From contig CALFER010000034.1 of assembly GCA_937951895.1 (NCBI GenBank), positions 137,674 through 201,673 of the forward strand: a stretch of DNA of 64,000 nucleotides, read 5' to 3'. The position numbers and the translations under genes are program-made. The notes under the pieces were generated by a model. That model saw only the letters and a program-made list of their open reading frames with translations, was not told the origin of the DNA and ran no database searches. The stretch's first letter is position 1; each line of letters begins with the position of its first letter. This DNA is from an uncultured bacterium. Its GTDB lineage: Bacteria > CSSED10-310 > CALFER01. Positions 8,976 to 60,315 of the stretch are shown one piece after another.

Positions 8976-9040
8976 AAATCCCATCCGATGAATAATCGTT
9001 TTTTGTCGAACGGCGATGAAACGCCGTCATATCAGGCCGA

Positions 9041-29499: not shown

Positions 29500-30258
29500 T
29501 CAGAGACGCTCGATCGAGTCATCCGGCACCCAACCCGTGAAGCCGTTTAAAAGCCGCACTTCGGCCCACCCGCCCTGATGCCGCAGCACGCGCATCTCAT
29601 AACCGGCCTGCTGCCGATATACCTCGGCAAAGTGCTCGCCGGGACCCGTTCGTGCCGATACCTCATTGCGGACCGCCACAGCGGTCTCGACCCCTTCACG
29701 ATCATATACCCGAATTCCCAGCCCGATCACACCGATCGCCATCCATATCGCACCGAACACCGCGATTCGTATATATCGGCGGCGACTGCGCCGGCGATTG
29801 TCGATCATCGCAGCCAGGAACGCCGCAATCGTCAGGAAATAGGCCGCCAGCGCCGAAAAGACCAGTTCGGATGTCGAGAGGGCGTGATGAACACGCTGGA
29901 TCCAGCCGATGAACCGATTGACCTTCGGTGGTTCCACGGGTTGACCGATCATCGATCGGGCCAGCAACAGATTGGCCCGGATATCGGCATCGCGCGGCGA
30001 TATTCGCTCGGCTCTCAGAAACATCGCGACGGCATGTCCGATATCCCCTTTGTGAAGGTAGCAGTTACCGAGATTATAGTAGACGGCGGCGTTGACGCAG
30101 CCTTGCCGGACAATCGTTTCGTAAATGCTGCGGGCGGAGTCCATATCACCGCTCTCGAAATGCCGATTCGCCCGATCGAACAACGCCTGAAAACTCTCGT
30201 CGGCCGATACCCCTCCCACCGAGAGCAGAACGAGCAGCAGGGGGATTGCGTGTCTCAT
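29500..30258 (-). CDS. BatE-like TPR + bacterial SH3 domain protein
   Basis: 252 aa. Signal peptide, 2-3 TPR repeats (AAVYYNLGNCYLHKGDIGHAVAMF), a TM segment, C-terminal SH3b-like region (GWAEVRLLNGFTGWVPDDSIE). ATGA overlap with batD. Confidence 0.6.
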   Translation of the reverse strand: MRHAIPLLLVLLSVGGVSADESFQALFDRANRHFESGDMDSARSIYETIVRQGCVNAAVYYNLGNCYLHKGDIGHAVAMFLRAERISPRDADIRANLLLARSMIGQPVEPPKVNRFIGWIQRVHHALSTSELVFSALAAYFLTIAAFLAAMIDNRRRSRRRYIRIAVFGAIWMAIGVIGLGIRVYDREGVETAVAVRNEVSARTGPGEHFAEVYRQQAGYEMRVLRHQGGWAEVRLLNGFTGWVPDDSIERL

Positions 30259-35109: not shown

Positions 35110-36080
35110 GCCGCGTCCTCCCCCGGATTTGACAGTACGATTCGAGATTCTCGAGTACGGAGTATGAATGATTCCACGACCTGGAAGAGATCGAACAGGG
35201 CATGCGTGGGCGGTTCAAATCGGGCGAACTTGACCAGGTCGGCTTGTTCCAGAACATGGAGAATGTCCCTGCGATCGGTCTCACCGAACATCGATTCTGA
35301 GAGATCCCGACGGATTTCACCGGTGGTGCGTTCGACGGTCGGAATGGCGTAACGGGCAGTGATGTACCGTTTGAAGATATCGGTCAGCCGGACACAATAC
35401 TCCTTGGTCAGCCCGCGACCCGGCAGATCTTCACCCCGGAGACGCTCAAGTTCCTCCAGGGCGATCGCATCCGCGGGCCGGGGCGGAGGCGGAGTGAGAA
35501 CGGCGATCTGTGCGCGCATGCGCCGACGCCGCCGGAACCAGACGAGCAGCGCAGTCAGTCCGATCCCCAGCGCCAGAACGGTCCCGATCACATACACCTT
35601 GTATCTCCATGCCGCCTCATACCCGATCGGATCTTTGATGGCGCGAGGCTGCGTGTCATTCCCGGTCAATACGGTCTCCACACGGATGGGTACGGCATCG
35701 GTCTTCAGCTCGTCCGTGCGCTGATCCTGTCCATTTATAACGATTGAAAACGAAGGGATACCCAGGTCTCCGGTTTCATACGCACTGACCGTCAGGACAA
35801 GCGACTCTTCGATCCGGCCGTCACCGCGCTCACTCGCCCTGTGACTCCGATCCAGAACACTGAAGGGATTGAGATCGAGTTCTTCACCGGGGAACACGAT
35901 CCGGAAATCAGCCGGGGCCTCGACCGTCACGGTCAAGGTGATGGGATCCCCCACCCGGATGCGATCGACGTCCACATGGGTGCGGATCGTCGGAGCAACC
36001 GGACCGGACGCGGAGACCGAGGAAACCAGCCAGAGTACTCCGAGCCATCGTCGGAATGAGTCCCGGCCCGGACGCCTCAT
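35106..36080 (-). CDS. Hypothetical membrane protein of the Bat operon (position of the DUF4381-like gene)
   Basis: 324 aa. Signal-like N-terminus, central TM followed by RRRRR, Pro-rich stretch. ATGA-coupled on both sides. Confidence 0.45.
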   Translation of the reverse strand: MRRPGRDSFRRWLGVLWLVSSVSASGPVAPTIRTHVDVDRIRVGDPITLTVTVEAPADFRIVFPGEELDLNPFSVLDRSHRASERGDGRIEESLVLTVSAYETGDLGIPSFSIVINGQDQRTDELKTDAVPIRVETVLTGNDTQPRAIKDPIGYEAAWRYKVYVIGTVLALGIGLTALLVWFRRRRRMRAQIAVLTPPPPRPADAIALEELERLRGEDLPGRGLTKEYCVRLTDIFKRYITARYAIPTVERTTGEIRRDLSESMFGETDRRDILHVLEQADLVKFARFEPPTHALFDLFQVVESFILRTRESRIVLSNPGEDAA

Positions 36081-36973
36081 CGCATCCTCCGCGCGCGCTG
36101 CGACATGAACCGATGGAGAGCCGATTCATATGCCTGATGTGTCTCCAGTTTGAGATGATCGATGCCGGCGGAAGCGAAAAACGCATCGCGCTCCTCGCGA
36201 AATCCCCGCATCTCCTGCACCAGGGCATCACGGACGGAGCGCTTCGACAGATCGATCAGCAAGGGTTTGCCGGATTCGGCGTCCTGCATCGACACGAATC
36301 CGACATCCGGAAACTCGCGCTCCAGCGGATCATCGATCGTGATGACGACCAGATCGTGTCGACGGGCAGCGGTCCGGATGGTTTTTTCATAATTGCGATC
36401 CATGAAATCGGACACGAGGAACACGACGGAACGGCGTTTTTGGACCCGATTGAGGTAATCGACGGCGAGGCCGATGTTGGTCGAACGGCCCGGCGGATGC
36501 GTCGTCAGCAGATCCCGGATGACGCGCAGGACATGCTGGGTGCCTTTTTTCGGTGGAATGAAGCTTTCGATGCGATCCGTAAAGAGAATCGAACCGACCT
36601 GATCATTGTTGCGGATCGCCGAGAAAGCGAGGACGGCAGAGATTTCAGCGGCGAGTTCGCCTTTGAAGCGATTTCGCACGCCGAACCATTGGGAACCGGA
36701 CACATCATTGAGGAACAGAACGGTCAGTTCGCGTTCCTCGATGTATCGTTTGACAAATGGCTTCCCGAACCGTGCCGTGACGTTCCAGTCGATCGTACGG
36801 ATATCATCCCCCGGCATATACTCACGCACCTCGGAAAACTCGACACCCTGCCCCTTGAACGCGCTCTGGTACTGACCGGCCATCACCTCGTTGACGAGTT
36901 TGTTCGTGGTGATCTCGATCCTCCGGATTTTCTGGACCAATTCCTTTGAAATCATCGCCTGTCGCCTCAGCAA
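36077..36973 (-). CDS. DUF58 family protein (MoxR partner, vWA-like)
   Basis: 298 aa. Conserved VREYMPGDDIRTIDWNVTAR motif of DUF58. Sits directly downstream of the MoxR ATPase gene. Confidence 0.75.
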   Translation of the reverse strand: MLRRQAMISKELVQKIRRIEITTNKLVNEVMAGQYQSAFKGQGVEFSEVREYMPGDDIRTIDWNVTARFGKPFVKRYIEERELTVLFLNDVSGSQWFGVRNRFKGELAAEISAVLAFSAIRNNDQVGSILFTDRIESFIPPKKGTQHVLRVIRDLLTTHPPGRSTNIGLAVDYLNRVQKRRSVVFLVSDFMDRNYEKTIRTAARRHDLVVITIDDPLEREFPDVGFVSMQDAESGKPLLIDLSKRSVRDALVQEMRGFREERDAFFASAGIDHLKLETHQAYESALHRFMSQRARRMR

Positions 36974-37001
36974 ACGATCTCTGAACCGGCGTCCGGTCCG
37001 A

Positions 37002-37991
37002 TCAGGGCACTTCGACGCGATCGAAAATGCGCCGAATCAGGTCATCCGAGGTCAATTCTTCAGCTTCTGCTTCGTAGGTAAGAATCACTCTGTGCCTGAG
37101 CACATCCGGGCCGATGGCTTTGATATCGTCGGGAGTGACGTAGCCCCGTCCGAACAGGAATGCGTATGCCCGAGCGGCCGCGATCAGACAGATTGTCGCA
37201 CGCGGGGATGCGCCGTACTGGATCAAACCCTTCATATCCGCTAGCCCGTAGTCGGAGGGGAACCGGGTTGCGAACACGAGATCCACGATGTAGTTCCGGG
37301 CGCGTTCATCGACATGTATCTCCCGCACGATCTTCCGGGCTTGCACGATCTGGGACGGGTCGATCACCACCGCAACCTCGATGTCGTCGATGCCGCTCAT
37401 CCGATCGAGAATCATGCGTTCTTCCGGTTTTGTCGGATAGCCGATCCGGAGCTTCATCATGAATCGGTCGACCTGCGCTTCCGGGAGGGGGTAGGTGCCC
37501 TCCTGTTCGATCGGGTTCTGGGTCGCGAGCACCAGAAAAGGCTCGGGGAGGGGATAGGTGGTGTTGCCGAGGGTGATCTGGCGTTCCTGCATCGACTCGA
37601 GCAACGCACTCTGGACCTTGGCCGGGGCGCGATTGACTTCGTCCGCGAGCACCAGATTGGCGAAGAGCGGTCCGCGTTTGGGTTCAAACGAGCCATTCTG
37701 GGGGTTATAGACGAGCGTACCGGTCAGGTCGGCCGGGAGCAGATCCGGTGTGAACTGGATCCGCTTGAACTCGGCACGGATGGTATCCGCCAGCGTTCTG
37801 ACCGCGAGTGTTTTAGCGAGGCCCGGGACGCCTTCTATGAGGATATGGCCGTCCGCGAGGAGGCCGACAAGCAATCGATCGAGGAGGTAGGATTGTCCGA
37901 CGAGGACTTTTTTGACTTCTTTCATCAGGCTGTCGACAAACGCACTGGCTTCTTTCACACGCTCATTGATGCGCTGAATATCCGTATGCAT
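37002..37991 (-). CDS. MoxR-family AAA+ ATPase
   Basis: Start at 37991 with a GGAGGG RBS. Walker A GVPGLAKT, Walker B LLADEVNRA, sensor motifs of the MoxR/RavA clade. Confidence 0.85.
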   Translation of the reverse strand: MHTDIQRINERVKEASAFVDSLMKEVKKVLVGQSYLLDRLLVGLLADGHILIEGVPGLAKTLAVRTLADTIRAEFKRIQFTPDLLPADLTGTLVYNPQNGSFEPKRGPLFANLVLADEVNRAPAKVQSALLESMQERQITLGNTTYPLPEPFLVLATQNPIEQEGTYPLPEAQVDRFMMKLRIGYPTKPEERMILDRMSGIDDIEVAVVIDPSQIVQARKIVREIHVDERARNYIVDLVFATRFPSDYGLADMKGLIQYGASPRATICLIAAARAYAFLFGRGYVTPDDIKAIGPDVLRHRVILTYEAEAEELTSDDLIRRIFDRVEVP

Positions 37992-38028
37992 ATACACCCT
38001 CCGAAATGAATCTCGCGAATCGGCGGAG

Positions 38029-39336
38029 TTACTTTTTCTGCGGATCGTTCCCGGGCGACGAGTCACCCAGCTTGTCCTCGAAGATCGTGCATCCGTATTT
38101 TTTCTTCAGATCTTCGAATTTCTGCTCCATTCCGCTTTCTTTCTTGTCTCTGACAAGCTTCGACTTGATCAGTGCGCGGACCTCGGTCATCGGCTTCACG
38201 GTTTCCTCGGTTTTCTCGTCCACCATCACAACATGCCAGCCCTTGGCGGATTTGATCGGATCCGAGTATTCGCCTTCTTTCAGCTTGAACAGAGCATCCC
38301 GGAAAATCGGATCGTTCCCGATGACACGAATCTGACCGTCTTTATAGACATATCCGAGATTTCCGTGCTGTTTGATGGTGGATTCGTCTTTGGAACGGGT
38401 TTCGACGAGTTTGTTGAAGTCGGCTCCCTTGAGCAACTCCTCGCGGACAGCCTTCGCATCAGCCTCGGTATCCAGCATGATATGGCGGATCTTTAGCCGG
38501 GCCCTGTTTTTATACTCATTCTGATTCGCCTTGTATTCCTTCTCAATCTCGCTGTCCGATATCAACATGTCTTCGGCGATCTGCTCCCTGACGTCTTCAA
38601 AGGGGCGAAATCCGGCTTCCGTGATCGAGGTGACCTGCAGGAGATGCCAGCCTTTTCGCGAGTTTACCGGTTCAGAGACCTCCCCTTGTTTCAGCCCGAA
38701 GATCGTTTTTTCGAATTCCGGCGACTTTCCGATACCCTTGATCGGGCCTCCCTTGGTCACCGTTCCCAGGTTGCCGCCGCTTTTCGCGCTTTCGGCATCC
38801 TTGGAGAATTTTTCGGCAGCGGCATCGAAGGTGATCGAGCCGGACGTGATCTGCTGGCGCACATCACGCGCCTCTTTCTCGGTTTCCAGCTGGATGTGCT
38901 TCACCGAGGCCGTTGCGTCGGTCTCGTAATCCTTCTTGTGCGCATCGTAATAGGCCCTGCGCTGTTTTTCATCGACTTCCGGCGCACCGCCCATCTCGGT
39001 TTTGTAGAATTCCGATGTCAGAATCCGGACACGGGCATCTTCGAGTTTGCTCTGGATTTCCGGTTTTTTATCATACCCGGCATCGGTAGCGGCCCTCAGG
39101 AGCAACTCCGTACGGATCAACCGATCGAGCAGTTTCATTTTTCCTTCCTTGGTGAGGAAGCTTTCGCGAGCGTATTCCGGCACTTCCTCGATCTTCTTCT
39201 GCAGATCTGCTGTCGTGATCTGTTTGGTGCCGATGGTAGCGAGGACTTCATCCGCGGCGCGGGCCGGGATCGGGCCGGAGGCTGCCAGGACAAGAATTGC
39301 CATCAGGATGGAGGATCGAATCAGAACGTATCTCAT
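38029..39336 (-). CDS. SurA/PpiD-like periplasmic peptidyl-prolyl isomerase with two parvulin domains
   Basis: 435 aa. Signal peptide, SurA N-terminal chaperone region, two rotamase domains (HIQLETEKEA...GGNLGTV and HIMLDTEADA...HGNLGYV). Confidence 0.75.
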   Translation of the reverse strand: MRYVLIRSSILMAILVLAASGPIPARAADEVLATIGTKQITTADLQKKIEEVPEYARESFLTKEGKMKLLDRLIRTELLLRAATDAGYDKKPEIQSKLEDARVRILTSEFYKTEMGGAPEVDEKQRRAYYDAHKKDYETDATASVKHIQLETEKEARDVRQQITSGSITFDAAAEKFSKDAESAKSGGNLGTVTKGGPIKGIGKSPEFEKTIFGLKQGEVSEPVNSRKGWHLLQVTSITEAGFRPFEDVREQIAEDMLISDSEIEKEYKANQNEYKNRARLKIRHIMLDTEADAKAVREELLKGADFNKLVETRSKDESTIKQHGNLGYVYKDGQIRVIGNDPIFRDALFKLKEGEYSDPIKSAKGWHVVMVDEKTEETVKPMTEVRALIKSKLVRDKKESGMEQKFEDLKKKYGCTIFEDKLGDSSPGNDPQKK

Positions 39337-40001: not shown

Positions 40002-40233
40002 CTCACCCTCCCGACTCAGTTGCATCCACAACCGATTCATTGAACCTGAAATATGATATACCGAATGAAGCGATATTGCAACCAACCAGGAAATCATCAG
40101 CCCCTCTCCTGCTTCGACACATATGCGGTCAAGCGATTGTTCCATTTCAAATTTGACCGGATCCGCCAAGACGGATACACTGAATTTCAAATCGGATCGC
40201 ATGATCTCTGAAGGTTGGAATTTGACGGAGAGG

Positions 40234-40956
40234 ATGACCGGAGCAATGACAGATCAATTAGCCGAAAAGCAAACTCGAGCCAAACTGCTGGTAGTCGATG
40301 ACGAAGAAGTTGTTCGGATTGCCCTGTCCGATTTTCTCATCAGCGCCGGTTACGAGGTCGACACGGCGGTCAGCGGCGAAGATGCCATGCATCGTCTCCA
40401 GTATGGGCATGACCGGTACGAGATCATCATCACGGATGTCATCATGGGAAACATGGGCGGTCTCGAATTACTCGAAAAAGCCATCGAACTCGACGCCGAC
40501 TCCATCGTCATTCTCATCACCGGCTACGCCATGCTTGAATCAGCCATCCACGCCATACGGAAAGGCGCTTACGATTTCTTACTCAAACCATTCGAAAACT
40601 CCACGCTCCTTCTGACGATACGACGAGGGCTCGAACGACGGAAACTGATCCAGGAGAATCGTGAACTGATCCAGGATCTGACCAGCAAGAATTTCGAATT
40701 GAACCGCGTCATCTTCGAACTCAGACGCGCCCAGTCCCAACTCGATGATTGCGACCGTCGCTTCGAGACTCCCCCGCCACGATCATCCGTGGTGAACGAT
40801 ATGCATGCGTCCATCCGCCAGATTCTCCAGTCCGTCGACGATGCCATGAATCATCTCGTACCGGAACGCGGTCTGTCCGCCGCCGCCAACGCCCTCCAGT
40901 CCATCGCCGTTCAGGCCTTGAAAATCAGAACGCTGATCGAAACCCTGCCCTCCTGA
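40234..40956 (+). CDS. Response regulator: receiver domain plus uncharacterised helical C-terminal domain (no recognisable HTH)
   Basis: Receiver motifs LLVVDDEE, ITDVIMGNMGG, LKPF. The C-terminal roughly 110 aa are coiled-coil-like. GAGAGGA RBS before the ATG at 40234. Confidence 0.7.
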   Translation: MTGAMTDQLAEKQTRAKLLVVDDEEVVRIALSDFLISAGYEVDTAVSGEDAMHRLQYGHDRYEIIITDVIMGNMGGLELLEKAIELDADSIVILITGYAMLESAIHAIRKGAYDFLLKPFENSTLLLTIRRGLERRKLIQENRELIQDLTSKNFELNRVIFELRRAQSQLDDCDRRFETPPPRSSVVNDMHASIRQILQSVDDAMNHLVPERGLSAAANALQSIAVQALKIRTLIETLPS

Positions 40957-47747: not shown

Positions 47748-50700
47748 TTATCGGAATTCCAACGACCGGAATCCCGGCAGCGCTTCGAGCGAACGGATAC
47801 ACTCCTCCGTCGGGTTGATCCTGAAATCGCTTCCCAGATCGATTGTGACCCGTTCCAACGGGTGATCAGGCGGAAACGTCAGCATGAACTGCAGCAGGGC
47901 GTCTCCTTTATGGCGCTGTAACAAACGCTCGATCTCCATGGCCTGAACTTTCGATTCGCCGTTTGTATTCAGAGACACGACGACAGCGCGCGTGAATCGC
48001 TTCCGCGCTTCGCTCACAGGAAGGATTTCTTCGACGCGCACCCGGATGTTGGTCTCGAAGATCGATGCGGATCCCAGCATGAAAATGATCGATTCGGTTT
48101 CGAGCACATCGCGGAACTTCTCCCACATTGCGGGTCGGACCATGAGTTCGTAGCTGCCCTCGAGATCCTCCATCGTGACGAACGCCATCTGCTCTTTGCT
48201 GGATTTCTGAATCAGTTTTTTGACATGTGACACGATTCCACACATCACCAGACGGTCACCGTCGAAGGCGTTTTCGAGTTTTCCGCTATCGTGTGTGCAG
48301 AATCGATCGACCTCGGCTTTGTATCGCAACAGCGGGTGGCCGGTCACGTAGAAGCCCAGCATTTCCTTTTCATTGGCGAGCAATTCCTGCGAATCCCACT
48401 CGGGCACATCCGGAATCTTCGGATCCGACATCTCATCGACGGTCCCCGCCCCCAGCATCGCGAACAGGCTGATCTGCCCCGAGTCCCGTTCCTTCTGCTT
48501 CTGCGCTCCGATTTCAATTGCCATGTCGATCGCGTCCAGAAGCTGACGCCTCCTGAATCCAAACGAATCGAATGCGCCGCTTCGGATCAGACTTTCCCCG
48601 ACCTTCCGATTCACGAGCCGCAGATCGACCCGGCGATAGAAATCGAACAGCGACTTGAACGGGCCATCGCTTTCACGCGCCTTCAGAATCGACTCGACCG
48701 CCGACACTCCGACGTTTTTGATCGCCGCCAGTCCGAAGCGGATTCCATCCGGCACGACAGTAAAATCGAGTCCTGATGAGTTGACATCGGGAGGCAGCAC
48801 GCGGATGTTCATTTTACGGCATTCCGAGATCGCCTTGACGACCTTGTCCTGATGCGCCATATCGCACGTCATGACCGCCGTCATAAACTCGCGCGGATGA
48901 TACCGCTTCATGTATGCCGTCTGATACGAAAGCAATGCATATCCCGCGGCATGCGATTTGTTGAAACCGTATAACGCGAACTTCTCCATCAGATCGAAGA
49001 CATCGCCCGCCGTATGCGAATCGTAGCCCAGAGCCAGCGCTCCCGGTATGTTCTTCTCGGAATCCCCCTTGATGAACACCTCGCGCATCCGCGCCATCTC
49101 TTCTTTCTTTTTCTTACCCATGGCGCGTCGCAGGATATCGGCGTGTCCCAGCGAGAATCCGGCCATGATCCGTGAAATCTGCATGACCTGTTCCTGATAG
49201 ACGATCAAGCCGTAAGTGTCCCTCAGGACGGATTCGAGCGACGCGTGCGGGTAGGAAATGACCTGTTCGCCATGCTTGCGAGCGATAAAATCCGGTATGA
49301 TTTCCATCGGCCCCGGTCGATACAGAGCCACCGCCGCAATGATGTCCTCAAAGCACGACGGTCGCATCTTGCGGATCATTTCCTGAAACCCGCTGCCTTC
49401 CATCTGGAACACACCGAAACACTCCCCCGTCGAGATATACTCGTAAACCGCCCTGTCATTGAGCCCCAGTGTCCGCAGGTCGAGGGGCTCACTGCCTTCC
49501 TTCCGGGACGCGTTGGCGAGACGCTGTGCGATATCCAGCACCGTGAGCGTGCGAAGGCCCAGGAAATCGAACTTGACCAACCCCGCTTTCTCGACATCTT
49601 CCTTCGCATATTGCGTCATGATGTCGTCAGCGCCTTCCTTCTTGACCGGAACCGTCTCCCAGAGCGGTCCTTCCGAGATGACGACACCGGCAGCATGTTC
49701 ACCCGCGTGCCGGTTCAATCCCTCCAGTCGCCGCGCAATCTCGAACAACTCCTTGATCTGCGCACTTTCCTCGATGCTTTGCCGCAGCTTCGGCTCCACT
49801 TCAAATGCGCTGTCGAGCGTCGCCTTGGGATCATTGGGGATCAGTTTCGCCAGGCGGTCGACATCCCCCAGCGGAATCCGGAGAACGCGTCCGACATCGC
49901 GAATGACCGCCTTGGCCTTCATGCAGTTGAACGTCACGATCTTCCCGACCCGATCCCGCCCGTACTTCTCGCTGACGTAATGGATCACCTCTTCGCGGCG
50001 ATTCATGCAGAAATCGATGTCGAAATCAGGCATCGAGACGCGCTCGGGATTCAAAAAACGCTCGAAGAGCAGATTGTACGGGATGGGATCCAGATCGGTG
50101 ATCCGCAGCGCGAAGGCCACGATGGAACCGGCGCCGGACCCTCGTCCAGGACCGACGGGTATATTCTGACTGTGCGCATAGTTGATAAAATCCGCGACGA
50201 TCAGGAAGTATCCGGAGAATCCCATGTTCTTGATGATTTCGAGTTCATCGCGCAGCCGGGCGAAATACGCCTCCCGATTCGCCTCATACGGCAAACCGGC
50301 AATGCGTTCATCGAGACCCGAGTGCGCGAGGTCATCGAGATACTGCTCCAGCGTCATACCGCTCGGGAGATGAAACTGCGGCAGCATCGGTTTATCGAGT
50401 TTCAGCGTGAGGTTACAGCGATCGGCGATTCGCCGGGTGTTGGCGACCGCATCGGGGAACGATTCAAACAACGGAATCATCTCGTGGGCCGATCGGAAAT
50501 AGAGCTGATCCGATTCGTAGCTGAACCGATCCGTGTCCTCCATCGTCTTCCCGGTCTGGATGCACAGGAGCACCTCATGGGCGCGCTTGTCATCCTGATT
50601 CAGATAGTGGCTGTCGTTCGTTGCCACGAGGGGGATATCGAGTTCCCTGGAAATTTTTAAGATTTCCTCGTTTGCCCGCACCTGATCCGCCATGCCATTG

Positions 50701-51242
50701 ACCTGGACCTCGAGAAAAAAGTTATCCGGGCCCAATATCGACCGGTAGCGTGAAGCGATCCGACGGGCGTCATCCATCCGTCCCTCGAGAATCGCCGAAG
50801 GGATTTCACCCGCCAGACATGCTGACAGTGCGATCAGGCCGTCGTGATACTGTTCGAGGAGTTCGTAATCGATCCGGGGATGGTAGTAGAAACCTTCGAG
50901 ATAGGCTTTACTGACGAGGCGCACGAGATTGCGGTAGCCGGTTTCGTTTTCCGCCAGGAGGATGAGATGAAACGCGGAGCGTCGTGTCATGTCGCGCCGG
51001 TCGCCCGGCGTGATGTAAACCTCGCAGCCGACGATGGGCTTGATCCCCGCTTTCTTCATCTTCGTATAAAAATCGATCGCGCCGAACATGTTGCCGTGAT
51101 CGGTCAACGCCACGGCATCCATCTGATACTCAGTGGCCTTTCGTGCGAGATCATCCAGGCGGATGGCGCCATCGAGCATCGAATAAGCGCTGTGGAGGTG
51201 AAGATGAACGAATTCGCTCACGGCCATGAGACTCACTCCCAT
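47748..51242 (-). CDS. dnaE: DNA polymerase III alpha subunit
   Basis: 1164 aa. PHP domain [13 protein letters not shown], polymerase core motifs, OB-fold C-terminus. Confidence 0.9.
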
Positions 51243-52780
51243 TCAATCGTTGCGGGCGGTTTCGATGAGATGTCGTAGACGACCCGATTGATACCTTTCA
51301 CTTCGTTGATGATCCGGCTGCTCATCCGTGCCAGCAGATCATGCGGCAGGCGCGCCCAATCCGCCGTCATGGCGTCGGTCGAAGTCACCGCCCGGATCGC
51401 GCAGACCGAATCGTAGGTTCGTTCGTCACCCATCACCCCAACCGTTTTCACCGGGAGAAGCACCGCGAAAACCTGCCACAACGAGCGCATCAGACCCGCC
51501 GCGGCAATTTCCTCCCGGACAATCCGATCGGCTTCCTGGACAATCCGGATGCGTTCCGGTGTCACCTCACCCAGGATTCTGACCGCCAATCCCGGCCCGG
51601 GGAACGGCTGCCGCCAGACGATTTCCTCCGGCATACCCAGAGCCAGACCGACCGCACGAACCTCGTCCTTGAACAGGAACCGCAGGGGTTCAACCAGCTT
51701 CAACCGCATCTTCTCCGGGAGGCCCCCGACGTTGTGGTGTGTCTTGATCGTGGCGGACGGACCTCTCACCGAAACACTCTCGATGACATCCGGATAGAGT
51801 GTCCCCTGTGCCAGAAAATCGATGCGCCCGTATCGTCTCGATTCGATCTCGAAGACTTCAATAAATGCATTGCCGATGATCTTCCGTTTTTTCTCGGGAT
51901 CCGTCACACCTTTGAGTTTCGACAGGAACCGGTCGGAGGCATCGACCGAGACGAAGCGTGCGCCGAGCCTCGGTCCGAAATATGCCTCGACCGCGGCCGC
52001 TTCTCCCGCTCGGAGGATCCCGTTGTTGATGAATATGGCGATCAGTTGATCCCCGATGGCCCGATCCAGCAGCATCGCGACGACCGCCGAATCGACGCCT
52101 CCGGAAAGTCCGCAGATGACCTTCCCCTGACCGACCTGCGTCCGGATGGCCCCGACGGCTTCCTCGATGAAGGTCCCCGCCGTCCAGTCCGGCCGGCATC
52201 CGCAGATGTCGATCACGAAGTTGCGGATCACTTCTTTGCCACGCGTCGAATGTGTCACTTCGGGATGAAACTGAATCCCGTAGATCCTGCGAACCGGATC
52301 GACGATTGCGGCGATGGGAGACGCATCGGTTTTTGCGATCAGCCGGAATCCGTCCGGAATCCGTTCCAGAATATCGCCATGACTCATCCAGACCATCAGC
52401 TGTGATTCGTTTTCAAGCCCTTTGAAGAGGGGATCCGTGCCGAGAATATCGAGTCGGATCGGGCCGTATTCACCCTCGGCGGCGCGGATGACCGAGCCTC
52501 CGAGATGCAAGCCGATCAACTGGCAACCGTAGCAGATACCCAGGATGGGAACCGGAGATTGAAAGATGGCGGGGTCGGGATGAGGCGAATCATCCGAATA
52601 GACGCTCGACGGCCCTCCGGTGAAAATGATCCCCGCGACATCGTCCCGGAACACCTGATCCGGCGCCGTGGTGTACGGAAGGATCTCACAGAAAACATTG
52701 CATTCGCGGATACGGCGCGCGATCAATTGTGTGTATTGAGAACCGAAATCGAGAATGACGATGCGGCGTCGGGATGTCAT
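51233..52780 (-). CDS. guaA: GMP synthase (glutamine-hydrolysing)
   Basis: 515 aa. Class I GATase (GICYGCQL, catalytic Cys-His), ATP-PPase P-loop SGGVDSAV, and the conserved C-terminal dimerisation domain ending ...ATIEWE. Confidence 0.9.
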
Positions 52781-52819: not shown

Positions 52820-54379
52820 TCAGGGCCACGGGGCGCAAATTAAAAACGCCTCGATCGGCGTGCGTCGCCCCTTGACGACAGCCGGTCCGACTGGTCTGAG
52901 ACGGAACTCGTCGCGCGCAATCGCAGCCGTCGGGGCGCCGAGAGCGATCTGGTCCGGACCCGCGATTTCCTGCTGGAGGCGTTGAGCGATATTGACCGCA
53001 TCACCGATGACCGTGTAATCACGTCGGATCGCCGCACCGATGTCACCGGCAATCACACGGCCCGTGTTGATGCCCGATCGGATACAGATCCGGTTGTCAG
53101 GACTCGCGGATGCATTTTTCACGGAGAGCTTCCTGTGCAGCGAGACAGCGGCTCGAACCGCCCGGATCGTGTCGTCTTCGCACGCGATCGGTGCACCGAA
53201 AACCGCCATGAATCCGTCTCCGAGATACTTGTCGAGAGTGCCGCCGAATTCGAACACGGTATCGACCGCGAGTTCGAAGAACGCATCCACGCGCAGTTCG
53301 ACCTCGGCCGGCGTGTGACGCTCGGCATAGGGCGTGAACCCATGGATGTCGCAGAACCAGACGGTCGCCGTGCGCAACTCCGGGAGAATCGATCCCCCCC
53401 TCCGAAGGATTTCCTCGACAACCGCCGGGGAATGGAACTGAGCCAGCCGCTGGCGGACCCGGTCCATCCGGGCGATCTCCTCCAGCAATCGGCTCTGTTC
53501 GAGACCGACAGCGAGCAGATTGGCGAAAGCGGTGAGGATTTCAAGCGACGAGGGTCTGAACAATCGTTTCAGTTCACGTGTTTCCGCCGTGATGACGCCG
53601 AGCAGTCGGTCGTCGACGAGCATCGGAGCGGCCATGAGCGAACGGATTCCTTTTGCAACAATGCTTTCCGCACTCTGAAACGCACTCAGCCCCACATCCT
53701 CCGCCAGAATCGCAATCCGCTCCCGGATCACCCGCGAAAGCAGCGTCCGGCTGATGGGACCGGCAGACGCCGCCGGGCAGCAGTCCGGATCCGCGATGCG
53801 CCTGATCGACGCCGGGTCGGGAGTTCCATCGGGTGCAACGAGATGAATCTCGCAGGTGTCTGCACCGATCAGTTCATGAATGAGATCGATGCCGGCAAGC
53901 AGAAGGTCTCCGGCCGTACGCATCCGTATCAGGTCACGGGATAACCGGACAATGTTGCGGAATGCACGCTCATCCAGATCACCCGGAGAGGAGATCGACG
54001 AATCGGTTCTCAGAAGTCTCGCGGGCTGGAAAATATGGGTTTCGTTGAGGAGTTCGTCCGAGCCGAGCATCGGCTCCTCATCGGCCGATTCAGCAACCAG
54101 TTCGAACTCGAGATTCCCGACCCGGATCCGGTCTCCGGGATTCAATACCGTCGTTCGCACACGGTTTCCGTTGACCCACGTGCCGTTGCGGCTATCCAGA
54201 TCCTCAATCCGGACCTTCCCCGGTTCGATGACCAGGGCCGCATGCTGTCTGGAGATGTTGGAGGCGGATTTGAACACGAGATCGCTGGGATGCTGGCGTC
54301 CCAGGACCCATCGACCCGAGGCGGGTAGCGGATACTTCTCCTCCGGCCGATCGGTTCGTCTCAATCCTAACCGAATCAC
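52820..54379 (-). CDS. FHA domain - GAF domain - class III adenylate/guanylate cyclase
   Basis: GTG start overlapping the smc stop (GTGA). N-terminal FHA (WVLGRQHPSDLVFKSASNISRQHAAL...GTWVNG), central GAF-like region, C-terminal cyclase homology domain (TVWFCDIHGFT, GDGFMAVFGAP, RSGINTGRVIAGDIG, YTVIGDAVNIAQRL). Confidence 0.8.
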   Translation of the reverse strand: MIRLGLRRTDRPEEKYPLPASGRWVLGRQHPSDLVFKSASNISRQHAALVIEPGKVRIEDLDSRNGTWVNGNRVRTTVLNPGDRIRVGNLEFELVAESADEEPMLGSDELLNETHIFQPARLLRTDSSISSPGDLDERAFRNIVRLSRDLIRMRTAGDLLLAGIDLIHELIGADTCEIHLVAPDGTPDPASIRRIADPDCCPAASAGPISRTLLSRVIRERIAILAEDVGLSAFQSAESIVAKGIRSLMAAPMLVDDRLLGVITAETRELKRLFRPSSLEILTAFANLLAVGLEQSRLLEEIARMDRVRQRLAQFHSPAVVEEILRRGGSILPELRTATVWFCDIHGFTPYAERHTPAEVELRVDAFFELAVDTVFEFGGTLDKYLGDGFMAVFGAPIACEDDTIRAVRAAVSLHRKLSVKNASASPDNRICIRSGINTGRVIAGDIGAAIRRDYTVIGDAVNIAQRLQQEIAGPDQIALGAPTAAIARDEFRLRPVGPAVVKGRRTPIEAFLICAPWP

Positions 54380-57300
54380 AGCATTCCGATCCTGGCAGAG
54401 ACAATCTTCGAGATGCCGGGATCGACCATCGTGATCCCGTACAAGGCTTCTGCGATTTCCATGGACAGCGGATTATGAGTGATCATGACGACCTGGGTAT
54501 CGAGTGCCAGTTCCTTGAGATATCGGGTGAACCGGAGCACATTGGCGTCATCCAGGGCGGCATCGACCTCATCCAGATAGAGGATCGGAGCGGGTCGGTA
54601 TTTGAATCCGGCGAAGAGCAGCGCGAGCGCGCACAACGCTTTTTCACCACCCGAGAGCAGATCGATCGTACGGGCTCGCTTCCCGGGCGGTTTACACACG
54701 ATTTCGACACCCGTTTCCAGCGGATCATCCGGATTTTCAAGCCGAAGCTCCGCCTCACCCCCTTCAAACAGTTTCGCAAAAATGTCGCCGAAGTTTCGAT
54801 TCACCTGCTCGAATGCCTCCATGAACCGATTCCGGCTGGTGGTATTGATCTGCGAAATGGTGGATTTCAATGCGGCGATGGCTTCGTCGAGATCCCGGAC
54901 CTGTTCATCGAGAAACTGGTTGCGTTCGACGATTTCGCGGTGTTCGTCCAGAGCAGCCAGATTGACGTCTCCGAGAGCGAGAATATCGTGTTCGAGGGAC
55001 TCCACGTGCGATTTCCAGGCTTCGAGTTCCTCAGAGTCCGGAAGGGGTCCGCCGTGAGATGCTGCGGCTTCGAGATCGATCTGGGACTGCTCGCGGAGCA
55101 TCTCCATGCGCGAATTCAGTTCCGCGATGCGGATGGTGGCTCCTGACCGTTCCGTCTCGATGGCGCGCAGCGACTCTTTGACCGTGTTCCATTCCTGATC
55201 GAGTGCCTGCAGTGCGTCGCGTTCCCGACCGAGACGGGCGGAGGCGGTCTGGACCCGTGTTGCCAGGATGGGCTGTCGGTCGTTGCACGATTCGATCTCG
55301 CGGGTCGTCGCCCGAAGTTCGTTCGTCACTTCTTCGAATTGTCTGGAGTTGGCGGCGAGTCTCTGGTCGAGACGTTCTGTCAGTTCACGAAGCCGCAGGT
55401 TGCCGGATCGCATCGACTCGACTTCGCGCCGACAGGCCAACAGGCGCTCCCGTGTCGTCTCGGTCGCAATCCGCAATTCACCGAACGCATGTCGACTGTG
55501 TGCCACAAGCGCATCGTGTGTCTCGATCGCTCCGTCCAACTCCGCCATTCTCGCGATATCATCCGGTGCCATCGCTACGCTCTGAGTATCACGGTGTAAT
55601 CCGTCGAGAGCATCGGACAGAGAGGCAATCTCATCGCCAACCGCCCCGCTCTCGGCTTCAATCGCCTCGACCCGCAGATCGACCTGGCGGAGCTGACGCT
55701 CGAGATGTTCGGAATCCCGCCGGACAGCTGCAAGTTTCAGACGCAATTCCGATAGCGATTCACGTGTCTGTTTATGCTCCTGCTCGGCTTCCAGGAGCAA
55801 TTCCATATAGGCAGCCCGTTCCCCCTCGCATGCGTCACGTCGCTCAGTGACATCCCGGATTTCCTGCTGCAGGGATCGGATTTCCTGTTTTTTTGCGCGA
55901 TACTCGCCCGCAGGACTCACATCGAATCCTCCGGTTACAATGCCTTCCTCGCTGATGGTTTCGCCTGCGAGTGTCACGAGAGCGATGGGGGACTCGGATG
56001 ACTCCCAGACAGAGATGGCGGCCGGGAGATCATCGACCAGATAGACCTTGTGGAGCAGGAGATCGAGCAGGGCATCGAAACCCGGAGAGGGTCTGACGAG
56101 CGGGCGCAGATGACGGGCGTTCGGGACGGACGGGGTGACCGATGGGTGATCATGACGCATCGATTGCAGGGGTGTGAAGACGCATCGGCCGATTTTACGG
56201 GCATTGAGAAACGAAACGGCCTGGAGTGTGTGTCCATGACCCTCGACAACGACACCCTGGATCGATCCGGCCAGTGCGGCCGCAACCGCTCGTTCATAAA
56301 TCGGTTCGGTTTCGTATGTATCGGCCATCAGGCCGAGAATACCTTTGTGTTCTGCATGTTCAGCGGAGTATTCGGTCAGGATGTTTCGCACGGCCTCACC
56401 GAGGCCCTCACCCGCCCGGATGATGTCGGTGAGTGACCGGGCGCGCGAGGAGCATTCCATCAGCCGTGCGTCCATTGCCTGGATCTGCCCTCTCCGTTCA
56501 TCGACCGCTCTTCGCCGAGCCATGATCCGATCCTCGCACCGCGCCAATTCTTCGATCCGGCCGCGTTCGGATTCTTCGAGATCCCGGATGGACGCGATTG
56601 TGGAACGCACGGCGACGCCGCTCTGTTCGCGCTCCAGTGCCACCCGATCACGCTCCCGATACAGTTTCTCCGCACGAGATCTCAGGCGGCGCAATCCCTC
56701 CTCATACTCAATCTGCTGGTTCCGGCGTCGGGCAGCGAGTTCGAGGCATTTGAGTTCGCGGTCTTTGAGACTTCTGAGTTCCTTACGGAGTTGCGTGAGC
56801 GTGTCCTGATGACGGGATTCCTCGATCCGGGCCCGATCGACATCCTGTTCCAGGGCTTGAAGGGAGCGTTCGATATTCGACAGTGCGGCTGCCTTTTCCT
56901 CCGCGGATGTCTCGGATTCGGTTCTTCGGCCCTGCAGTTCATTCTGTTCGCTTTCGATATCCTGGGATGACCGGGTCAGAGCGTTTGAACGCGCATGCAG
57001 GTCGGCGAGCCGCCGGGTCAGGAAATCGAGTTGCATGTCATTCTGTTCCGCGTTTTTCTGCTCGGCTCGAAGCGCGTCCGTCGCTGAATCGACACGAAGA
57101 CGGGCCTGTTCCACCGCCGCTGCCTTCAAGGCGGTCTCCGCCATCAATCGGGCGGCGTCGTCTTCCAGCGAAGCAAGGCGGGTGGTGAGGGCGGTGCGGT
57201 CGCGCAGGGATTGCGCGAATCGGGCGGTCAGGTACGCATTCCGGGTCTCATCGCGCTCCCGGACCAATTCACGGAAACGCTCCGCTTTTCTGGCCTGCCT

Positions 57301-57993
57301 GGCCAGAACGGCCCTGCGTGACCGGACCTCGCCCAGGATGTCGCGAACGCGATCGAGATTCTGTTCGGTGAGATTGAGTTTGGATTGGGCTTCTTTTTTC
57401 CGGTGTTTGTACTTGACGATTCCCGCGCTCTGCTCAATCAAACCACGACGCTCGTCCGGCCGAGCCAGGAGCAGGGCATCCACCTTACCCTGTTCGATCA
57501 GGGAATACGCGCCTTTCCCCAGTCCCGCATCCATGAAGAGATCGACGATATCCTTGAGCCGGCATGGTTGCCGGTTCAGAAGATATTCGCTTTCGCCGCT
57601 CCGGTACAAGCGCCGCGTGACTTCGATGTCCCGGTAATCATGTGGCGGATGATCCGACAGCCATTCGACGGTGAGTGATACCTCCGCGAGTCCGACCGGT
57701 TTCCGGGTCGCACTTCCGTTGAAGATGACATCGGACATGTTCTGCGCCCGGAGCTGTGACGGGCCTTGTTCACCGAGCACCCATCGGAGGGCATCGAGAA
57801 TATTCGATTTCCCGCAGCCATTGGGTCCGACGATCGCACAAACCGGATGGTCAAACTCCAGGACCGCTCGATCCGGAAACGACTTGAACCCCTGAAGACT
57901 CAGGCGTTTGAAGCGGATCGAGACTCCTGCGGGCTGCGGCTGCTCAATGATGTCGGTCGATGTTGCTATCACCCACCCTCCGGATCTATCCAA
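54376..57993 (-). CDS. smc: Chromosome segregation protein SMC
   Basis: 1205 aa. N-terminal Walker A GPNGCGKSN, long coiled coils, central hinge, C-terminal signature LSGGEKALCALALLFA and Walker B LYLDEVDAALD. Confidence 0.85.
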   Translation of the reverse strand: MDRSGGWVIATSTDIIEQPQPAGVSIRFKRLSLQGFKSFPDRAVLEFDHPVCAIVGPNGCGKSNILDALRWVLGEQGPSQLRAQNMSDVIFNGSATRKPVGLAEVSLTVEWLSDHPPHDYRDIEVTRRLYRSGESEYLLNRQPCRLKDIVDLFMDAGLGKGAYSLIEQGKVDALLLARPDERRGLIEQSAGIVKYKHRKKEAQSKLNLTEQNLDRVRDILGEVRSRRAVLARQARKAERFRELVRERDETRNAYLTARFAQSLRDRTALTTRLASLEDDAARLMAETALKAAAVEQARLRVDSATDALRAEQKNAEQNDMQLDFLTRRLADLHARSNALTRSSQDIESEQNELQGRRTESETSAEEKAAALSNIERSLQALEQDVDRARIEESRHQDTLTQLRKELRSLKDRELKCLELAARRRNQQIEYEEGLRRLRSRAEKLYRERDRVALEREQSGVAVRSTIASIRDLEESERGRIEELARCEDRIMARRRAVDERRGQIQAMDARLMECSSRARSLTDIIRAGEGLGEAVRNILTEYSAEHAEHKGILGLMADTYETEPIYERAVAAALAGSIQGVVVEGHGHTLQAVSFLNARKIGRCVFTPLQSMRHDHPSVTPSVPNARHLRPLVRPSPGFDALLDLLLHKVYLVDDLPAAISVWESSESPIALVTLAGETISEEGIVTGGFDVSPAGEYRAKKQEIRSLQQEIRDVTERRDACEGERAAYMELLLEAEQEHKQTRESLSELRLKLAAVRRDSEHLERQLRQVDLRVEAIEAESGAVGDEIASLSDALDGLHRDTQSVAMAPDDIARMAELDGAIETHDALVAHSRHAFGELRIATETTRERLLACRREVESMRSGNLRLRELTERLDQRLAANSRQFEEVTNELRATTREIESCNDRQPILATRVQTASARLGRERDALQALDQEWNTVKESLRAIETERSGATIRIAELNSRMEMLREQSQIDLEAAASHGGPLPDSEELEAWKSHVESLEHDILALGDVNLAALDEHREIVERNQFLDEQVRDLDEAIAALKSTISQINTTSRNRFMEAFEQVNRNFGDIFAKLFEGGEAELRLENPDDPLETGVEIVCKPPGKRARTIDLLSGGEKALCALALLFAGFKYRPAPILYLDEVDAALDDANVLRFTRYLKELALDTQVVMITHNPLSMEIAEALYGITMVDPGISKIVSARIGML

Positions 57994-58099
57994 TCACATG
58001 CGACGTGAACGGGATTTCCAATCCGGAGAGCATAGCATCCTGGGCTCGGAATTGGCAACCCGAACGGCTATTCAGAGGGGGTCATCGCCTGCTGATATA

Positions 58100-59749
58100 C
58101 TAGATATTGGGCAACCGATCGAGAACCGCCTGCACCCGATGCAATGCTTCACTGCGCTCCGGTTCCGGCCAGCGCCGGAAGACGAGTCTGAGGGATCGAG
58201 CCGCCTGGCAGGCGCGGTTACGCATGCTCTGAACCAGATCCTGCCGGCCGGCGGCGGATGCGAAACAGGCCGCATCGACTCGGTTTTCGAGATAGAAGAT
58301 GGAGATTGGTTCGGTTCGGCGATTGAAGAATTTCAACTCGGCCAGCAGATCGAACGTTGATTCGCAGCCTTTGAGACAAGCGGTATCGATTGCGGATTCG
58401 ATCCGGGCAATTCGCAACCACTCGGATTCCTTCAGTCGCCTCGCGATACCCACTGCTTCCTCATGGGTTCGGCTGGCGGCCAGGAGATCGCCGAGCCGAC
58501 GAAGAATCCGGCCTTTGAGCAGCAGGGCGAACAGCCGCAGTTCTTCGGTAATCCGATGCTGTGCCAGTGCCATATCGAGGTGATCGAGAGCCGACTCGAA
58601 GGCGCCGATCCGATATCTCAGGATCGCGATATTGCGATGCAGATGACAGGTATCGATTGCTGTGTTCAGTTTGGCGAATTCGGTCAGGGATTCCGTCCAT
58701 CTGGTTTCGGCCGACCGGAGGTTTCCCGCTTCCGCAAGAAACGATCCGGTGTTTGCCATTATCTGTGCTTTGAGATACGGGCTGTCGGTGTATTCCAGTC
58801 GAAACAATGCCGTTTCTCCGAATTCGATCGCTTTCTGCAGGTTGCCCTGGCGGTAGTGGACACACGCGAGATTATTCAGATCCTTGGCCTGTTCGATCGC
58901 ATCCGGTGCCCGACTCGACAGATCGATGGCGGTTTCGATGGCATGGATCGCTTCCGGATAACGTCCCAGTTGGAACAGGGTGCTTCCGAGATCACGGTGG
59001 GAGAGCCGCTGTTCATCGGCATCCCGGGATTGGATTGCGAGGGTGATCGCACGATTGAAGAGGTCGACGGCCTGGTCATATCGCTGTTCATGAAACAGGG
59101 ATTCGCCGATCGCGCGCAAGGCTCGGACCTGATTGGGCGTGTCGTCCAGTGCGGTCATGAGCATAAAGGCGAGATACAGGCAGGGGAGCGGATTGGGGTT
59201 GGTTGAATCGAGATCGAGTACGATTCCATAGTTCAGGAGGTTCATCGAAAAGCGTCTGAGAGCCGGAAGAAAACGCGCGATGGAGGCGTCCTCGAGGATA
59301 CCTGACATCAGCGTGGACCGCTTTTCGAGTTCTCGTGTCATCATCTCGACACTCCGCTCTGGACCGGCGCTGACCGAACCGAGGAACGCGAGCATTTGCG
59401 AAGAGAAGGCGCGCAGGAGATCGAGGATGACGGTTTCTGTGTCGGCTGAATCCTGAAACGGCATGGCGGCGACCGCGCGCAATTCCTCGAGCACATCCGG
59501 AACAGACCGGATACCGCAGCCGTTGGGACGGGGCGGTTTGGGCATGACCTGCAGCAATTCCGGGGGGAGACCGGCTTCATCGATATGCTCGATGGTCATC
59601 AACCTGAGATATTCACGACGGCAGGCGCGACACCCGTCGAGATGGCGTCGCATCGACGTCATGGCATCGGCATCCAGCAATCGGCGGATATAGCTGATCA
59701 GTCTGTCCCGACATGTTTCGCACGGGACCTGGATCAACTCCTGTTTCAT
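58100..59749 (-). CDS. Anti-sigma factor with N-terminal zf-HC2 zinc finger and large TPR-repeat domain
   Basis: 549 aa. CETCRDRL...HLDGCRACRREY (Cx2C...Hx3Cx2C), then more than 8 TPR repeats. ATGA-coupled to the ECF sigma gene. Confidence 0.65.
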   Translation of the reverse strand: MKQELIQVPCETCRDRLISYIRRLLDADAMTSMRRHLDGCRACRREYLRLMTIEHIDEAGLPPELLQVMPKPPRPNGCGIRSVPDVLEELRAVAAMPFQDSADTETVILDLLRAFSSQMLAFLGSVSAGPERSVEMMTRELEKRSTLMSGILEDASIARFLPALRRFSMNLLNYGIVLDLDSTNPNPLPCLYLAFMLMTALDDTPNQVRALRAIGESLFHEQRYDQAVDLFNRAITLAIQSRDADEQRLSHRDLGSTLFQLGRYPEAIHAIETAIDLSSRAPDAIEQAKDLNNLACVHYRQGNLQKAIEFGETALFRLEYTDSPYLKAQIMANTGSFLAEAGNLRSAETRWTESLTEFAKLNTAIDTCHLHRNIAILRYRIGAFESALDHLDMALAQHRITEELRLFALLLKGRILRRLGDLLAASRTHEEAVGIARRLKESEWLRIARIESAIDTACLKGCESTFDLLAELKFFNRRTEPISIFYLENRVDAACFASAAGRQDLVQSMRNRACQAARSLRLVFRRWPEPERSEALHRVQAVLDRLPNI

Positions 59750-60315
59750 GGTTTCTCCTCCATCAATCGTCTCAACATCCGCCGCGCCCGCCCCAGTTTC
59801 GACGTGACGGTGTTGACGCAGGAATGAGTCATGTTCGCGATTTCGGTCGATGAAAACCCGCCGAAGTAATACAGACAGATGACGTCCCGATATCCATCCG
59901 CCAGTCTCCCGATGGCATCTCGCAAATCCTCGCGATCAATTTGCCGGGATTCCATCCGATCGGCTCCCTCGGCATCGGCTTCGATCGGGATATAGTCATC
60001 GATGTTGATGGTGTTCCCGCTGCGGCATCGTTTTTTCCAGTACTGGCGGCACAGGTTGAGAGCGATGATATAGAGGTAGCGTGGAAACGAGCGGTGATCG
60101 GTCAATGTTGCGAGTCGGTTGAAACCTTCCTGGAAAGCGCTTTGAATCAGGTCTTCGACTTCATCCTGCGGAATACCGCGCTGGTAGCATATAAACAGGG
60201 GGATTTTCCGGGTCAGATCGATGAGTTCGATGCAGGATTGTTCGTGCCAGGTGCCGGTTCGGAGATACTCCAGTTTGATCTTTCCGACGATGTCCGCGAT
60301 CAGGTCATAATTCAT
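59746..60315 (-). CDS. ECF-subfamily sigma-70 factor
   Basis: 189 aa. Region 2 (DLIQSAFQEGFNR..., RYLYIIALNLCRQYWKK) and region 4 HTH (YFGGFSSTEIANMTHSCVNTVTSKLGRARRML). Confidence 0.8.
   Translation of the reverse strand: MNYDLIADIVGKIKLEYLRTGTWHEQSCIELIDLTRKIPLFICYQRGIPQDEVEDLIQSAFQEGFNRLATLTDHRSFPRYLYIIALNLCRQYWKKRCRSGNTINIDDYIPIEADAEGADRMESRQIDREDLRDAIGRLADGYRDVICLYYFGGFSSTEIANMTHSCVNTVTSKLGRARRMLRRLMEEKP

Follow-up and report, generated by a model that had tools for sequence, protein, structure and literature searches.

The stretch analysed here (the window) is 64,000 nucleotides of contig CALFER010000034.1, from an uncultured bacterium. Our subject is a minus-strand gene pair within it: smc, encoding the bacterial condensin ATPase, and directly behind it an overlapping gene for a protein with an FHA domain, a GAF domain and a class III nucleotidyl cyclase domain. 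Features are collected in Table 1, with positions counted from the first letter of the window. The smc reading frame encodes 1205 amino acids from its TTG codon; gene calls on identical contigs begin 7 codons further in, at 57972, and give 1198 amino acids. The product matches the Pfam families SMC_N (211.5 bits, residues 29-1195) and SMC_hinge (65.9 bits, residues 550-661), and every Pfam match of this protein and of the cyclase lies above the curated cut-off. The signature motif LSGGEK and the Walker B motif LDEVD are invariant among relatives. With both halves of the head, the hinge, these motifs and a length of about 1200 residues, the protein is a canonical bacterial SMC.

Table 1. Features of the window, beginning with the smc-cyclase pair and its array.
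Feature	Position	Strand	Basis and remarks
smc, bacterial condensin ATPase	54376..57993	minus	open reading frame, Pfam, motifs; 1205 amino acids from TTG
GTGA stop/start overlap, 4 nucleotides	54376..54379	minus	smc TGA 54378-54376, cyclase GTG 54379-54377
FHA-GAF-cyclase, predicted class IIIb adenylyl cyclase, 519 amino acids, GTG start	52820..54379	minus	Pfam, PDB alignments, AlphaFold2 model
FHA domain, residues 24-88	54116..54310	minus	Pfam PF00498, 68.4 bits against a cut-off of 20.7
Linker motif E113-T114-H115-I116-F117, candidate phospho-acceptor and FHA ligand	54029..54043	minus	orthologue comparison; function inferred
GAF domain, residues ~158-295	53495..53908	minus	Pfam and model
Cyclase homology domain, residues 337-514	52838..53371	minus	Pfam PF00211 Guanylate_cyc
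guaA, GMP synthase	51233..52780	minus	Pfam GATase and GMP_synt_C; 39 nucleotides downstream of the cyclase gene
dnaE, DNA polymerase III alpha	47748..51242	minus	Pfam PHP, DNA_pol3_alpha, finger, HHH_6; synteny conserved
ECF sigma factor (59746-60315) and zf-HC2/TPR anti-sigma factor (58100-59749)	58100..60315	minus	Pfam; upstream of smc, same strand
Promoter-like site TTGCCA-18-TATGCT with TG	58029..58058	minus	consensus scan only; in the 106-nucleotide gap upstream of smc
Pkinase-AAA_16 (STAND-type)-TPR protein, 1321 amino acids	12023-15988	minus	Pfam
Subtilase gene, 1110 amino acids	16023-19355	minus	just upstream of the kinase gene at 12023-15988
MoxR AAA_3 ATPase	37002-38066	minus	Bat/MoxR-like array
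DUF58	36077-36973	minus	Bat/MoxR-like array
VWA	32996-34165	minus	Bat/MoxR-like array
TPR	32125-33039	minus	Bat/MoxR-like array
BatD	30255-32153	minus	Bat/MoxR-like array
TPR-SH3	29500-30258	minus	Bat/MoxR-like array

Read on the minus strand, the junction of the two genes is ...GGA ATG CTG TGA, in which the GTG start of the cyclase gene is made up of the final G of CTG and the TG of the smc stop codon. This bears out the four-nucleotide overlap described in a first-pass annotation made from the sequence alone, and there is no intergenic space. The residues that directly follow the GTG (M-x-x-h-x-L) match the beginnings of orthologous proteins whose start codons occupy the same position, so this codon is the real start and not an artefact of taking the longest open reading frame. 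They can also be aligned with the opening strand of the FHA domain in the wider family of FHA-GAF-cyclases.

The three-domain architecture claimed for the downstream protein, with its complete active site, likewise stands. The GAF region matches both PF01590 (44.6 bits against a cut-off of 22.4, residues 164-292) and GAF_2, PF13185 (39 bits against 28.6, residues 158-294). It is folded in the AlphaFold2 model, with a predicted local distance difference test score (pLDDT) of about 80-92, so that Pfam match and fold agree in placing it among GAF domains. The cyclase homology domain scores 73.6 bits against a cut-off of 21.9. The model has a mean pLDDT of 84.7, mostly above 90 in the cyclase domain, and is laid out as FHA domain (1-97), disordered linker (101-133), GAF domain, long helix (276-313), short helix (318-326) and cyclase domain. 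Six catalytic residues can be recognized: the metal-binding pair D344 (in FCDIHGF) and D388 (in LGDGF), the transition-state residues N463 and R467 (in VNIAQR), and the substrate-specifying pair K384 (in DKYLGDG) and T456 (in DYTVIGD). Five of the six are invariant in a family alignment of 90 sequences, and T456 occurs in at least 90% of them.

By sequence, the closest solved structures are the catalytic domain of cyanobacterial Cya2 (2w01), its engineered fusion 6fht and Pseudomonas aeruginosa CyaB (3r5g), and the catalytic Asp, Asn and Arg residues align with their counterparts in CyaB and Cya2. The best of these matches, Cya2 together with its fusion, is a guanylyl cyclase, and the conserved gene downstream, guaA, encodes GMP synthase. 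Both facts would suit a reading in which the domain is a guanylyl cyclase, or else a degenerate and non-catalytic domain, tied to guaA. We regard that reading as very improbable. Adenine is specified by Lys, paired with Thr (class IIIb) or Asp at the second substrate position, and guanine by Glu paired with Cys or Gly. K384 and T456 match the Lys/Thr pair of the adenylyl cyclases CyaB and CyaC at positions where Cya2 has Glu/Gly, on which ground a guanylyl cyclase was rejected; the conservation of the catalytic residues led us to reject a pseudo-enzyme as well; and smc lies beside guaA with no cyclase between them at locus L108, described below. The alignment of specificity residues that the first-pass annotation had proposed therefore gives an adenine-type pair, with ATP as the predicted substrate and cyclic AMP (cAMP), rather than an undefined cyclic nucleotide monophosphate (cNMP), as the predicted product of a class IIIb-like enzyme. 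We conclude that the 519-residue protein is a class IIIb-type adenylyl cyclase with FHA and GAF inputs, predicted to be active.

Among characterized enzymes, the catalytic domain is most like those of the soluble class IIIb adenylyl cyclases CyaB and Spirulina CyaC (1wc0/1wc1). The likeness covers sequence (E = 6e-22 and 9e-18), fold (Foldseek TM-score by target length 0.85-0.88, root-mean-square deviation 1.7-2.3 Å), the Lys/Thr pair, the two Asp residues that bind metal, and the transition-state Asn and Arg. Bicarbonate stimulates CyaB and CyaC. The protein of the window differs from both in its N-terminal regulatory part, which consists of FHA and GAF domains. A GAF-type sensor joined by a long helix to a cyclase domain is also the arrangement of Anabaena CyaB1 and CyaB2, which are GAF-regulated cyanobacterial adenylyl cyclases, and of the phytochrome-cyclase fusion 6fht, the best match to the whole model by structure and by sequence. 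Unlike these proteins, the window protein has a single GAF domain with no sign of cNMP binding, and an added FHA input.

The FHA-GAF-cyclase architecture itself is not new. A protein search with the cyclase returned 3254 matches at E <= 1e-10; FHA, GAF and cyclase domains are present in all of the best 120, and more than 100 clusters share this architecture. Representatives from Deltaproteobacteria/Thermodesulfobacteriota, Acidobacteria and Nitrospirota have the same domain order, 33-37% identity over the full length, and the same active-site and FHA residues. Many go by the database names "adenylate cyclase" or "FHA domain-containing protein"; no experiments on proteins of this architecture came up in literature searches. 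The members of this wider family differ from the window protein and its closest relatives in that their linkers are longer and have no E-T-x-I-F motif (discussed below), they are never neighbours of smc, and the clade of the window protein forms a branch separate from theirs.

That clade is small. Identity to the cyclase exceeds 40% in just seven protein clusters (100, 89, 68, 46, 46, 43 and 46%), and at all seven orthologous loci the order is smc, cyclase, guaA, dnaE, with this core never interrupted. Where the contig reaches beyond dnaE, accA, a gene for a PBP2-type transpeptidase and rodA follow; the array of the window continues likewise, with a radical-SAM gene inserted after dnaE. The loci sample at least five deep lineages, among which identities are 43-48% for SMC, 41-49% for the cyclase, 56-69% for GuaA and 62-70% for DnaE. 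Conservation of the adjacency in relatives, which the first-pass annotation had set as a check, is thus found over deep divergence. The overlap of stop and start codons is present throughout the orthologous loci in three forms: GTGA (window and L015), ATGA (L007, L009, L012 and L013) and TAATG (L011). A scan of genome contigs with the single cyclase protein gave one close locus (L015), the other hits being cyclase-domain or partial matches from other phyla.

The flanks of the core vary. Genes for an ECF sigma factor and an anti-sigma factor lie upstream of smc in L001, L007, L011 and L108, and tmk-PSP1 is found there instead in L013. The insertions after dnaE include the radical-SAM gene, a Ser/Thr kinase gene (L005) and an aminotransferase/AIRS-domain gene (L007). 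The L005 kinase, in the 89% relative (contig CAYYMM010000086.1), is an 842-residue protein with TPR repeats encoded at 7407-9935 between dnaE and the radical-SAM gene, where the window has no gene. At L009 (contig Ga0216253_10002766) the smc frame shifts about 110 codons from its end, at ~2809-2820, and gene callers report an 86-residue piece of SMC that overlaps the cyclase; the shift is probably an artefact of assembly or sequencing, or else a frameshift of recent date. In the longest-frame reading of the window, guaA and dnaE overlap by 10 nucleotides (51233-51242). Gene calls start dnaE 5 codons later, 5 nucleotides past the guaA stop, and the two genes abut either way.

The usual neighbourhood of smc is exemplified by rnc-smc-ftsY in Bacillus. 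As in such neighbourhoods, smc here stands in an operon-like array of housekeeping genes; the downstream partners differ, being guaA and dnaE, with the cyclase gene between smc and guaA in most lineages but not all. Literature searches found no study of the smc-cyclase arrangement. The overlap of smc and the cyclase gene is more than chance, because a stop/start overlap recurs at all seven orthologous loci and because smc, guaA and dnaE occur nowhere within 10 kb of the cyclase gene at 82 other cyclase loci (1.27 Mb). Neighbouring genes in the wider family encode a PP2C phosphatase at L096, where a kinase is also nearby, a kinase at L095 and a dCache-HAMP-HD protein at L097, and not SMC.

The seven cyclases were monophyletic in 100 of 100 neighbour-joining bootstraps when compared with a subsample of 28 wider-family members; a single acquisition followed by vertical descent would therefore account for them. 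The comparison indicates one gain of the gene, in an ancestor belonging to the candidate phylum CSSED10-310, and vertical inheritance since then. The database names the L011 orthologue (genome JAFGJC) as belonging to a CSSED10-310 bacterium, and a genome announcement assigns both JAFGJC and JAFGLW to that phylum (PMC8248873).

The pairing is not universal in the group. In a search with SMC, about twenty SMC clusters (749-2573 bits) form a clade distinct from all others (at most 600 bits), and two members of that clade, L108 and L109, have SMCs 44% identical to that of the window, which makes them as close to it as the cyclase-bearing lineages are. At L108 (genome JAFGLW) the array reads dprA-LysM-sigma-anti-sigma-smc-guaA-dnaE-accA-PBP2-rodA, with a spacer of 152 nucleotides in the place of the cyclase gene. 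At L109 (contig CAZELM010000004.1) an smc gene of 1257 codons is overlapped by 8 nucleotides by an unrelated gene (5478-6788), and guaA-dnaE are absent. The 436-residue product of that gene matches no Pfam family and contains a HELGH (HExxH) motif; a stop/start overlap with smc is therefore not unique to the cyclase gene. A remnant of the cyclase was sought in L108 and L109, and none was found.

Loss of the cyclase gene in L108 is the simplest reading of these data, in preference to a later gain in the other lineages. It would follow from the monophyly of the cyclases, from identity levels (L108 is as similar to the other lineages as they are to one another) and from the reported assignment of JAFGLW to a new family that also includes JAFGJC, which carries the cyclase (PMC8248873).

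Other relatives add to the picture. A metagenome scan with an alignment of the SMC C-terminal region had four SMC relatives among the matches listed; L099 and L100, metagenomic SMCs about 45% identical, have no cyclase downstream. The outer members of the SMC clade apparently have no contig in common with the best 120 cyclase matches, which is weak evidence that the pair is absent there. From these comparisons, the smc-cyclase pairing is a real operon arrangement, lineage-limited and dispensable. What is conserved is the compact housekeeping array of one rare uncultured phylum, with a common sensor cyclase inserted in it.

As to expression, a consensus scan of the minus strand found no terminator- or promoter-like site between smc and the cyclase gene, the separate signal that the first-pass annotation had named as a sign of chance neighbourhood. 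The scan gave five promoter-like sites, close to the 3.2 expected from shuffled sequences, one of them just upstream of smc (Table 1). Terminator-like sites are fewer than in shuffles (three found, 6.9 expected). One of them, a weak 5-bp hairpin followed by a T-run at 52861-52846 on the minus strand, falls within the last 14 cyclase codons ahead of guaA and is probably without meaning. Co-transcription of the cyclase gene with smc is likely on the evidence of gene layout.

The overlapping stop and start codons, conserved in orthologues, are of the kind expected in a translationally coupled pair. An AGGA sequence resembling a Shine-Dalgarno site lies 10 nucleotides upstream of the GTG, within the SMC codons for Arg-Ile; only some orthologues have it, and no Shine-Dalgarno-like sequence is consistent across them. 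Translation of the cyclase by termination and reinitiation at the smc stop would be the most economical reading. The roughly stoichiometric translation asserted in the first-pass annotation does not follow from the overlap. Because the start is GTG and ribosome-binding sites are not consistent, the yield of cyclase is more likely to be below that of SMC. No Rfam family has a match anywhere in the window.

These observations bear on a neutral account of the pairing, in which the cyclase gene landed once between smc and guaA as a hitch-hiker of unrelated function, was kept there by tight packing and is expressed from its own promoter within smc. Such an account would accommodate the loss in L108 with synteny undisturbed, the unrelated contexts of the wider family and the generic housekeeping character of the array, and a weak promoter-like match does lie inside smc, at 56178-56149. 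Even so we consider it unlikely. The overlap itself has been kept, in its three sequence forms, among proteins only 41-49% identical, which would be improbable without selection for compactness or for coupling, and a consistent Shine-Dalgarno-like sequence that could serve independent initiation is missing.

The input side of the protein centres on its FHA domain. In the 90-sequence alignment G27, R28, S43 and H46 are invariant, and N65 and G66 occur in at least 90%. The residues for binding phospho-Thr (R28, S43, H46 and N65) are intact, and binding of a phosphopeptide is predicted. Sequence matches of the FHA domain in the PDB are GarA, Rv1747 and the FHA-GGDEF protein 6hbz, which is DgcB of Bdellovibrio. 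In GarA/OdhI and in DgcB, the FHA ligand is a phospho-Thr peptide derived from the protein itself, with a hydrophobic residue at position +3 (PMC6733907).

A candidate for such a peptide is found in the linker between the FHA and GAF domains. All seven orthologues have a single copy of the pattern [EQ]T.[IVM][FY] in the same position, although the length and sequence of the linker vary among them, and a conserved Leu follows about five residues past it. The pattern occurs in none of 113 members of the wider family and is expected by chance in 0.4% of linkers. In the window protein it supplies a conserved Thr (T114) with a hydrophobic residue at +3 (F117), within the part of the polypeptide predicted to be disordered (101-133, pLDDT below 50). 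We take the motif to resemble the sequence of GarA itself. By analogy, the E-T-x-I-F motif suggests a self-phosphopeptide switch like those of GarA and DgcB. The likeness to DgcB and GarA/OdhI extends to FHA sequence and to the conserved Thr with Phe/Tyr at +3 in a disordered segment; the output differs, being here a class III cyclase with cAMP as predicted product, where theirs is a GGDEF domain or the inhibition of an enzyme. Only two elements are new here, the operon context peculiar to this lineage and the linker motif.

Taken together, the reading we hold to be probable is of a genuine smc gene followed by an overlapping gene for a soluble FHA-GAF adenylyl cyclase that was acquired once, is co-expressed with smc, is regulated by phosphorylation through its FHA domain and delivers cAMP. 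One transcript would carry both genes, and most of the cyclase would be made by ribosomes that reach the smc stop codon and then reinitiate. Cyclase expression would thereby track that of genes for replication, segregation and growth, probably at a lower level. The working form of the protein would be a homodimer, controlled by Ser/Thr kinases by way of its FHA domain. The favoured route would run through T114 in the linker motif: once phosphorylated, pT114 would bind, as the self-peptides of GarA/OdhI and DgcB do, to the FHA domain of its own chain or of the partner subunit, and so switch the unit made up of GAF domain, helix and cyclase domain. A ligand of the GAF domain would be the second input, and cAMP the output. 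Direct action on SMC is required by no evidence, and any obligatory action of that kind is made less likely by the loss of the gene from a close relative that has kept the synteny.

Several observations weigh against this reading. The linker motif was defined post hoc, after the sequences had been seen; the corresponding linker element of the wider family often has no Thr, and the element could be structural or serve in docking instead of being a phospho-site. In GarA and DgcB the peptide lies in the N-terminal tail ahead of the FHA domain, and the candidate peptide here is C-terminal to that domain, in the linker; a likeness in manner of working to GarA/OdhI/DgcB is therefore all that is claimed, and not membership of their family. 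No gene for a Ser/Thr kinase, a PP2C phosphatase or a cNMP-binding protein stands next to the cyclase gene. At the junction, RNA folding at six loci gave z-scores of -0.2 to -1.6, no different from shuffled sequences, with no significant or conserved structure to enforce coupling. The cyclase may have a promoter of its own in the 3' part of smc. Trees built by neighbour joining from SMC, GuaA and DnaE have a star-like shape that gives no clear branching point for L108, which bears on the choice between loss and gain.

A stronger connection with smc would make the cyclase a dedicated partner of condensin, its FHA domain docking on phosphorylated SMC, on ScpA/B or on a replisome protein, cAMP being produced according to the state of the chromosome or cell cycle, and coupling delivering the cyclase to nascent SMC. 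Three patterns agree with this: the overlap is kept in all seven orthologues over deep lineages while upstream genes and the insertions after dnaE vary, cyclase and SMC are equally diverged, and adjacency to smc is absent at the 82 unrelated cyclase loci. We nevertheless rate it as distinctly unlikely, given the whole array at L108 without cyclase or remnant, another gene overlapping smc at L109, and a wider family never found beside smc. Nor does SMC itself carry a mark of such a partnership: the only Thr that might separate cyclase-linked from cyclase-less lineages is T126 (Ala in L108, Thr in L109), which is not meaningful among seven sequences.

The signalling link to chromosome organisation proposed in the first-pass annotation was drawn from gene neighbourhood, and the same loci count against it: L108 has no cyclase, L109 has another gene, and wider-family cyclases stand beside PP2C, kinases or an HD protein. 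That annotation also pointed to the protein encoded at 12023-15988 as a possible upstream kinase. It is indeed a Ser/Thr kinase by its Pkinase, AAA_16 and TPR domains; nothing connects either this kinase or the one within the L005 array to the cyclase. Neither a cNMP-binding protein nor a PP2C phosphatase was found among the scanned open reading frames of the window. A signalling link between the cyclase and condensin is possible but unsupported, and its probability is low. Its fullest form would be a condensin-linked checkpoint enzyme, made by ribosomes finishing SMC, with its FHA domain docked on a phosphorylated component of SMC-ScpAB or of replication, and converting the state of the chromosome or cell cycle into cAMP. 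This we think less probable still than a dedicated partnership.

If the checkpoint idea were true, it would connect a bacterial second messenger with chromosome organisation in a way that has no described counterpart. A functional pairing would give a first indication that cAMP signalling, gated by Ser/Thr phosphorylation, is wired to the expression or activity of condensin and replication genes. Even without a link to condensin, the locus provides a clean natural example of a signalling gene held in an smc overlap over deep divergence, and the E-T-x-I-F motif a testable idea of self-phosphopeptide control for the large FHA-GAF-cyclase family. The practical value is modest, as the evidence consists of the position of a gene among its neighbours, in a phylum without cultured members and with one loss on record.

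Elsewhere in the window, the minus-strand genes at 29500-38066 form an array resembling the Bat/MoxR aerotolerance operon (Table 1). On the plus strand, 40123-40956 encodes a response-regulator receiver protein of 277 residues, of which the C-terminal 110 match no Pfam family. A 562-residue open reading frame at 4995-6683 (minus strand) combines AIR synthase-type domains (PurM-like, AIRS, AIRS_C) with a formyltransferase domain (PurN-like) and looks like a fused purine-biosynthesis gene. At 6729-8919, on the same strand, lie two tandem genes for T2SSE-family (PilT/PilU-like) ATPases of secretion or pilus retraction.

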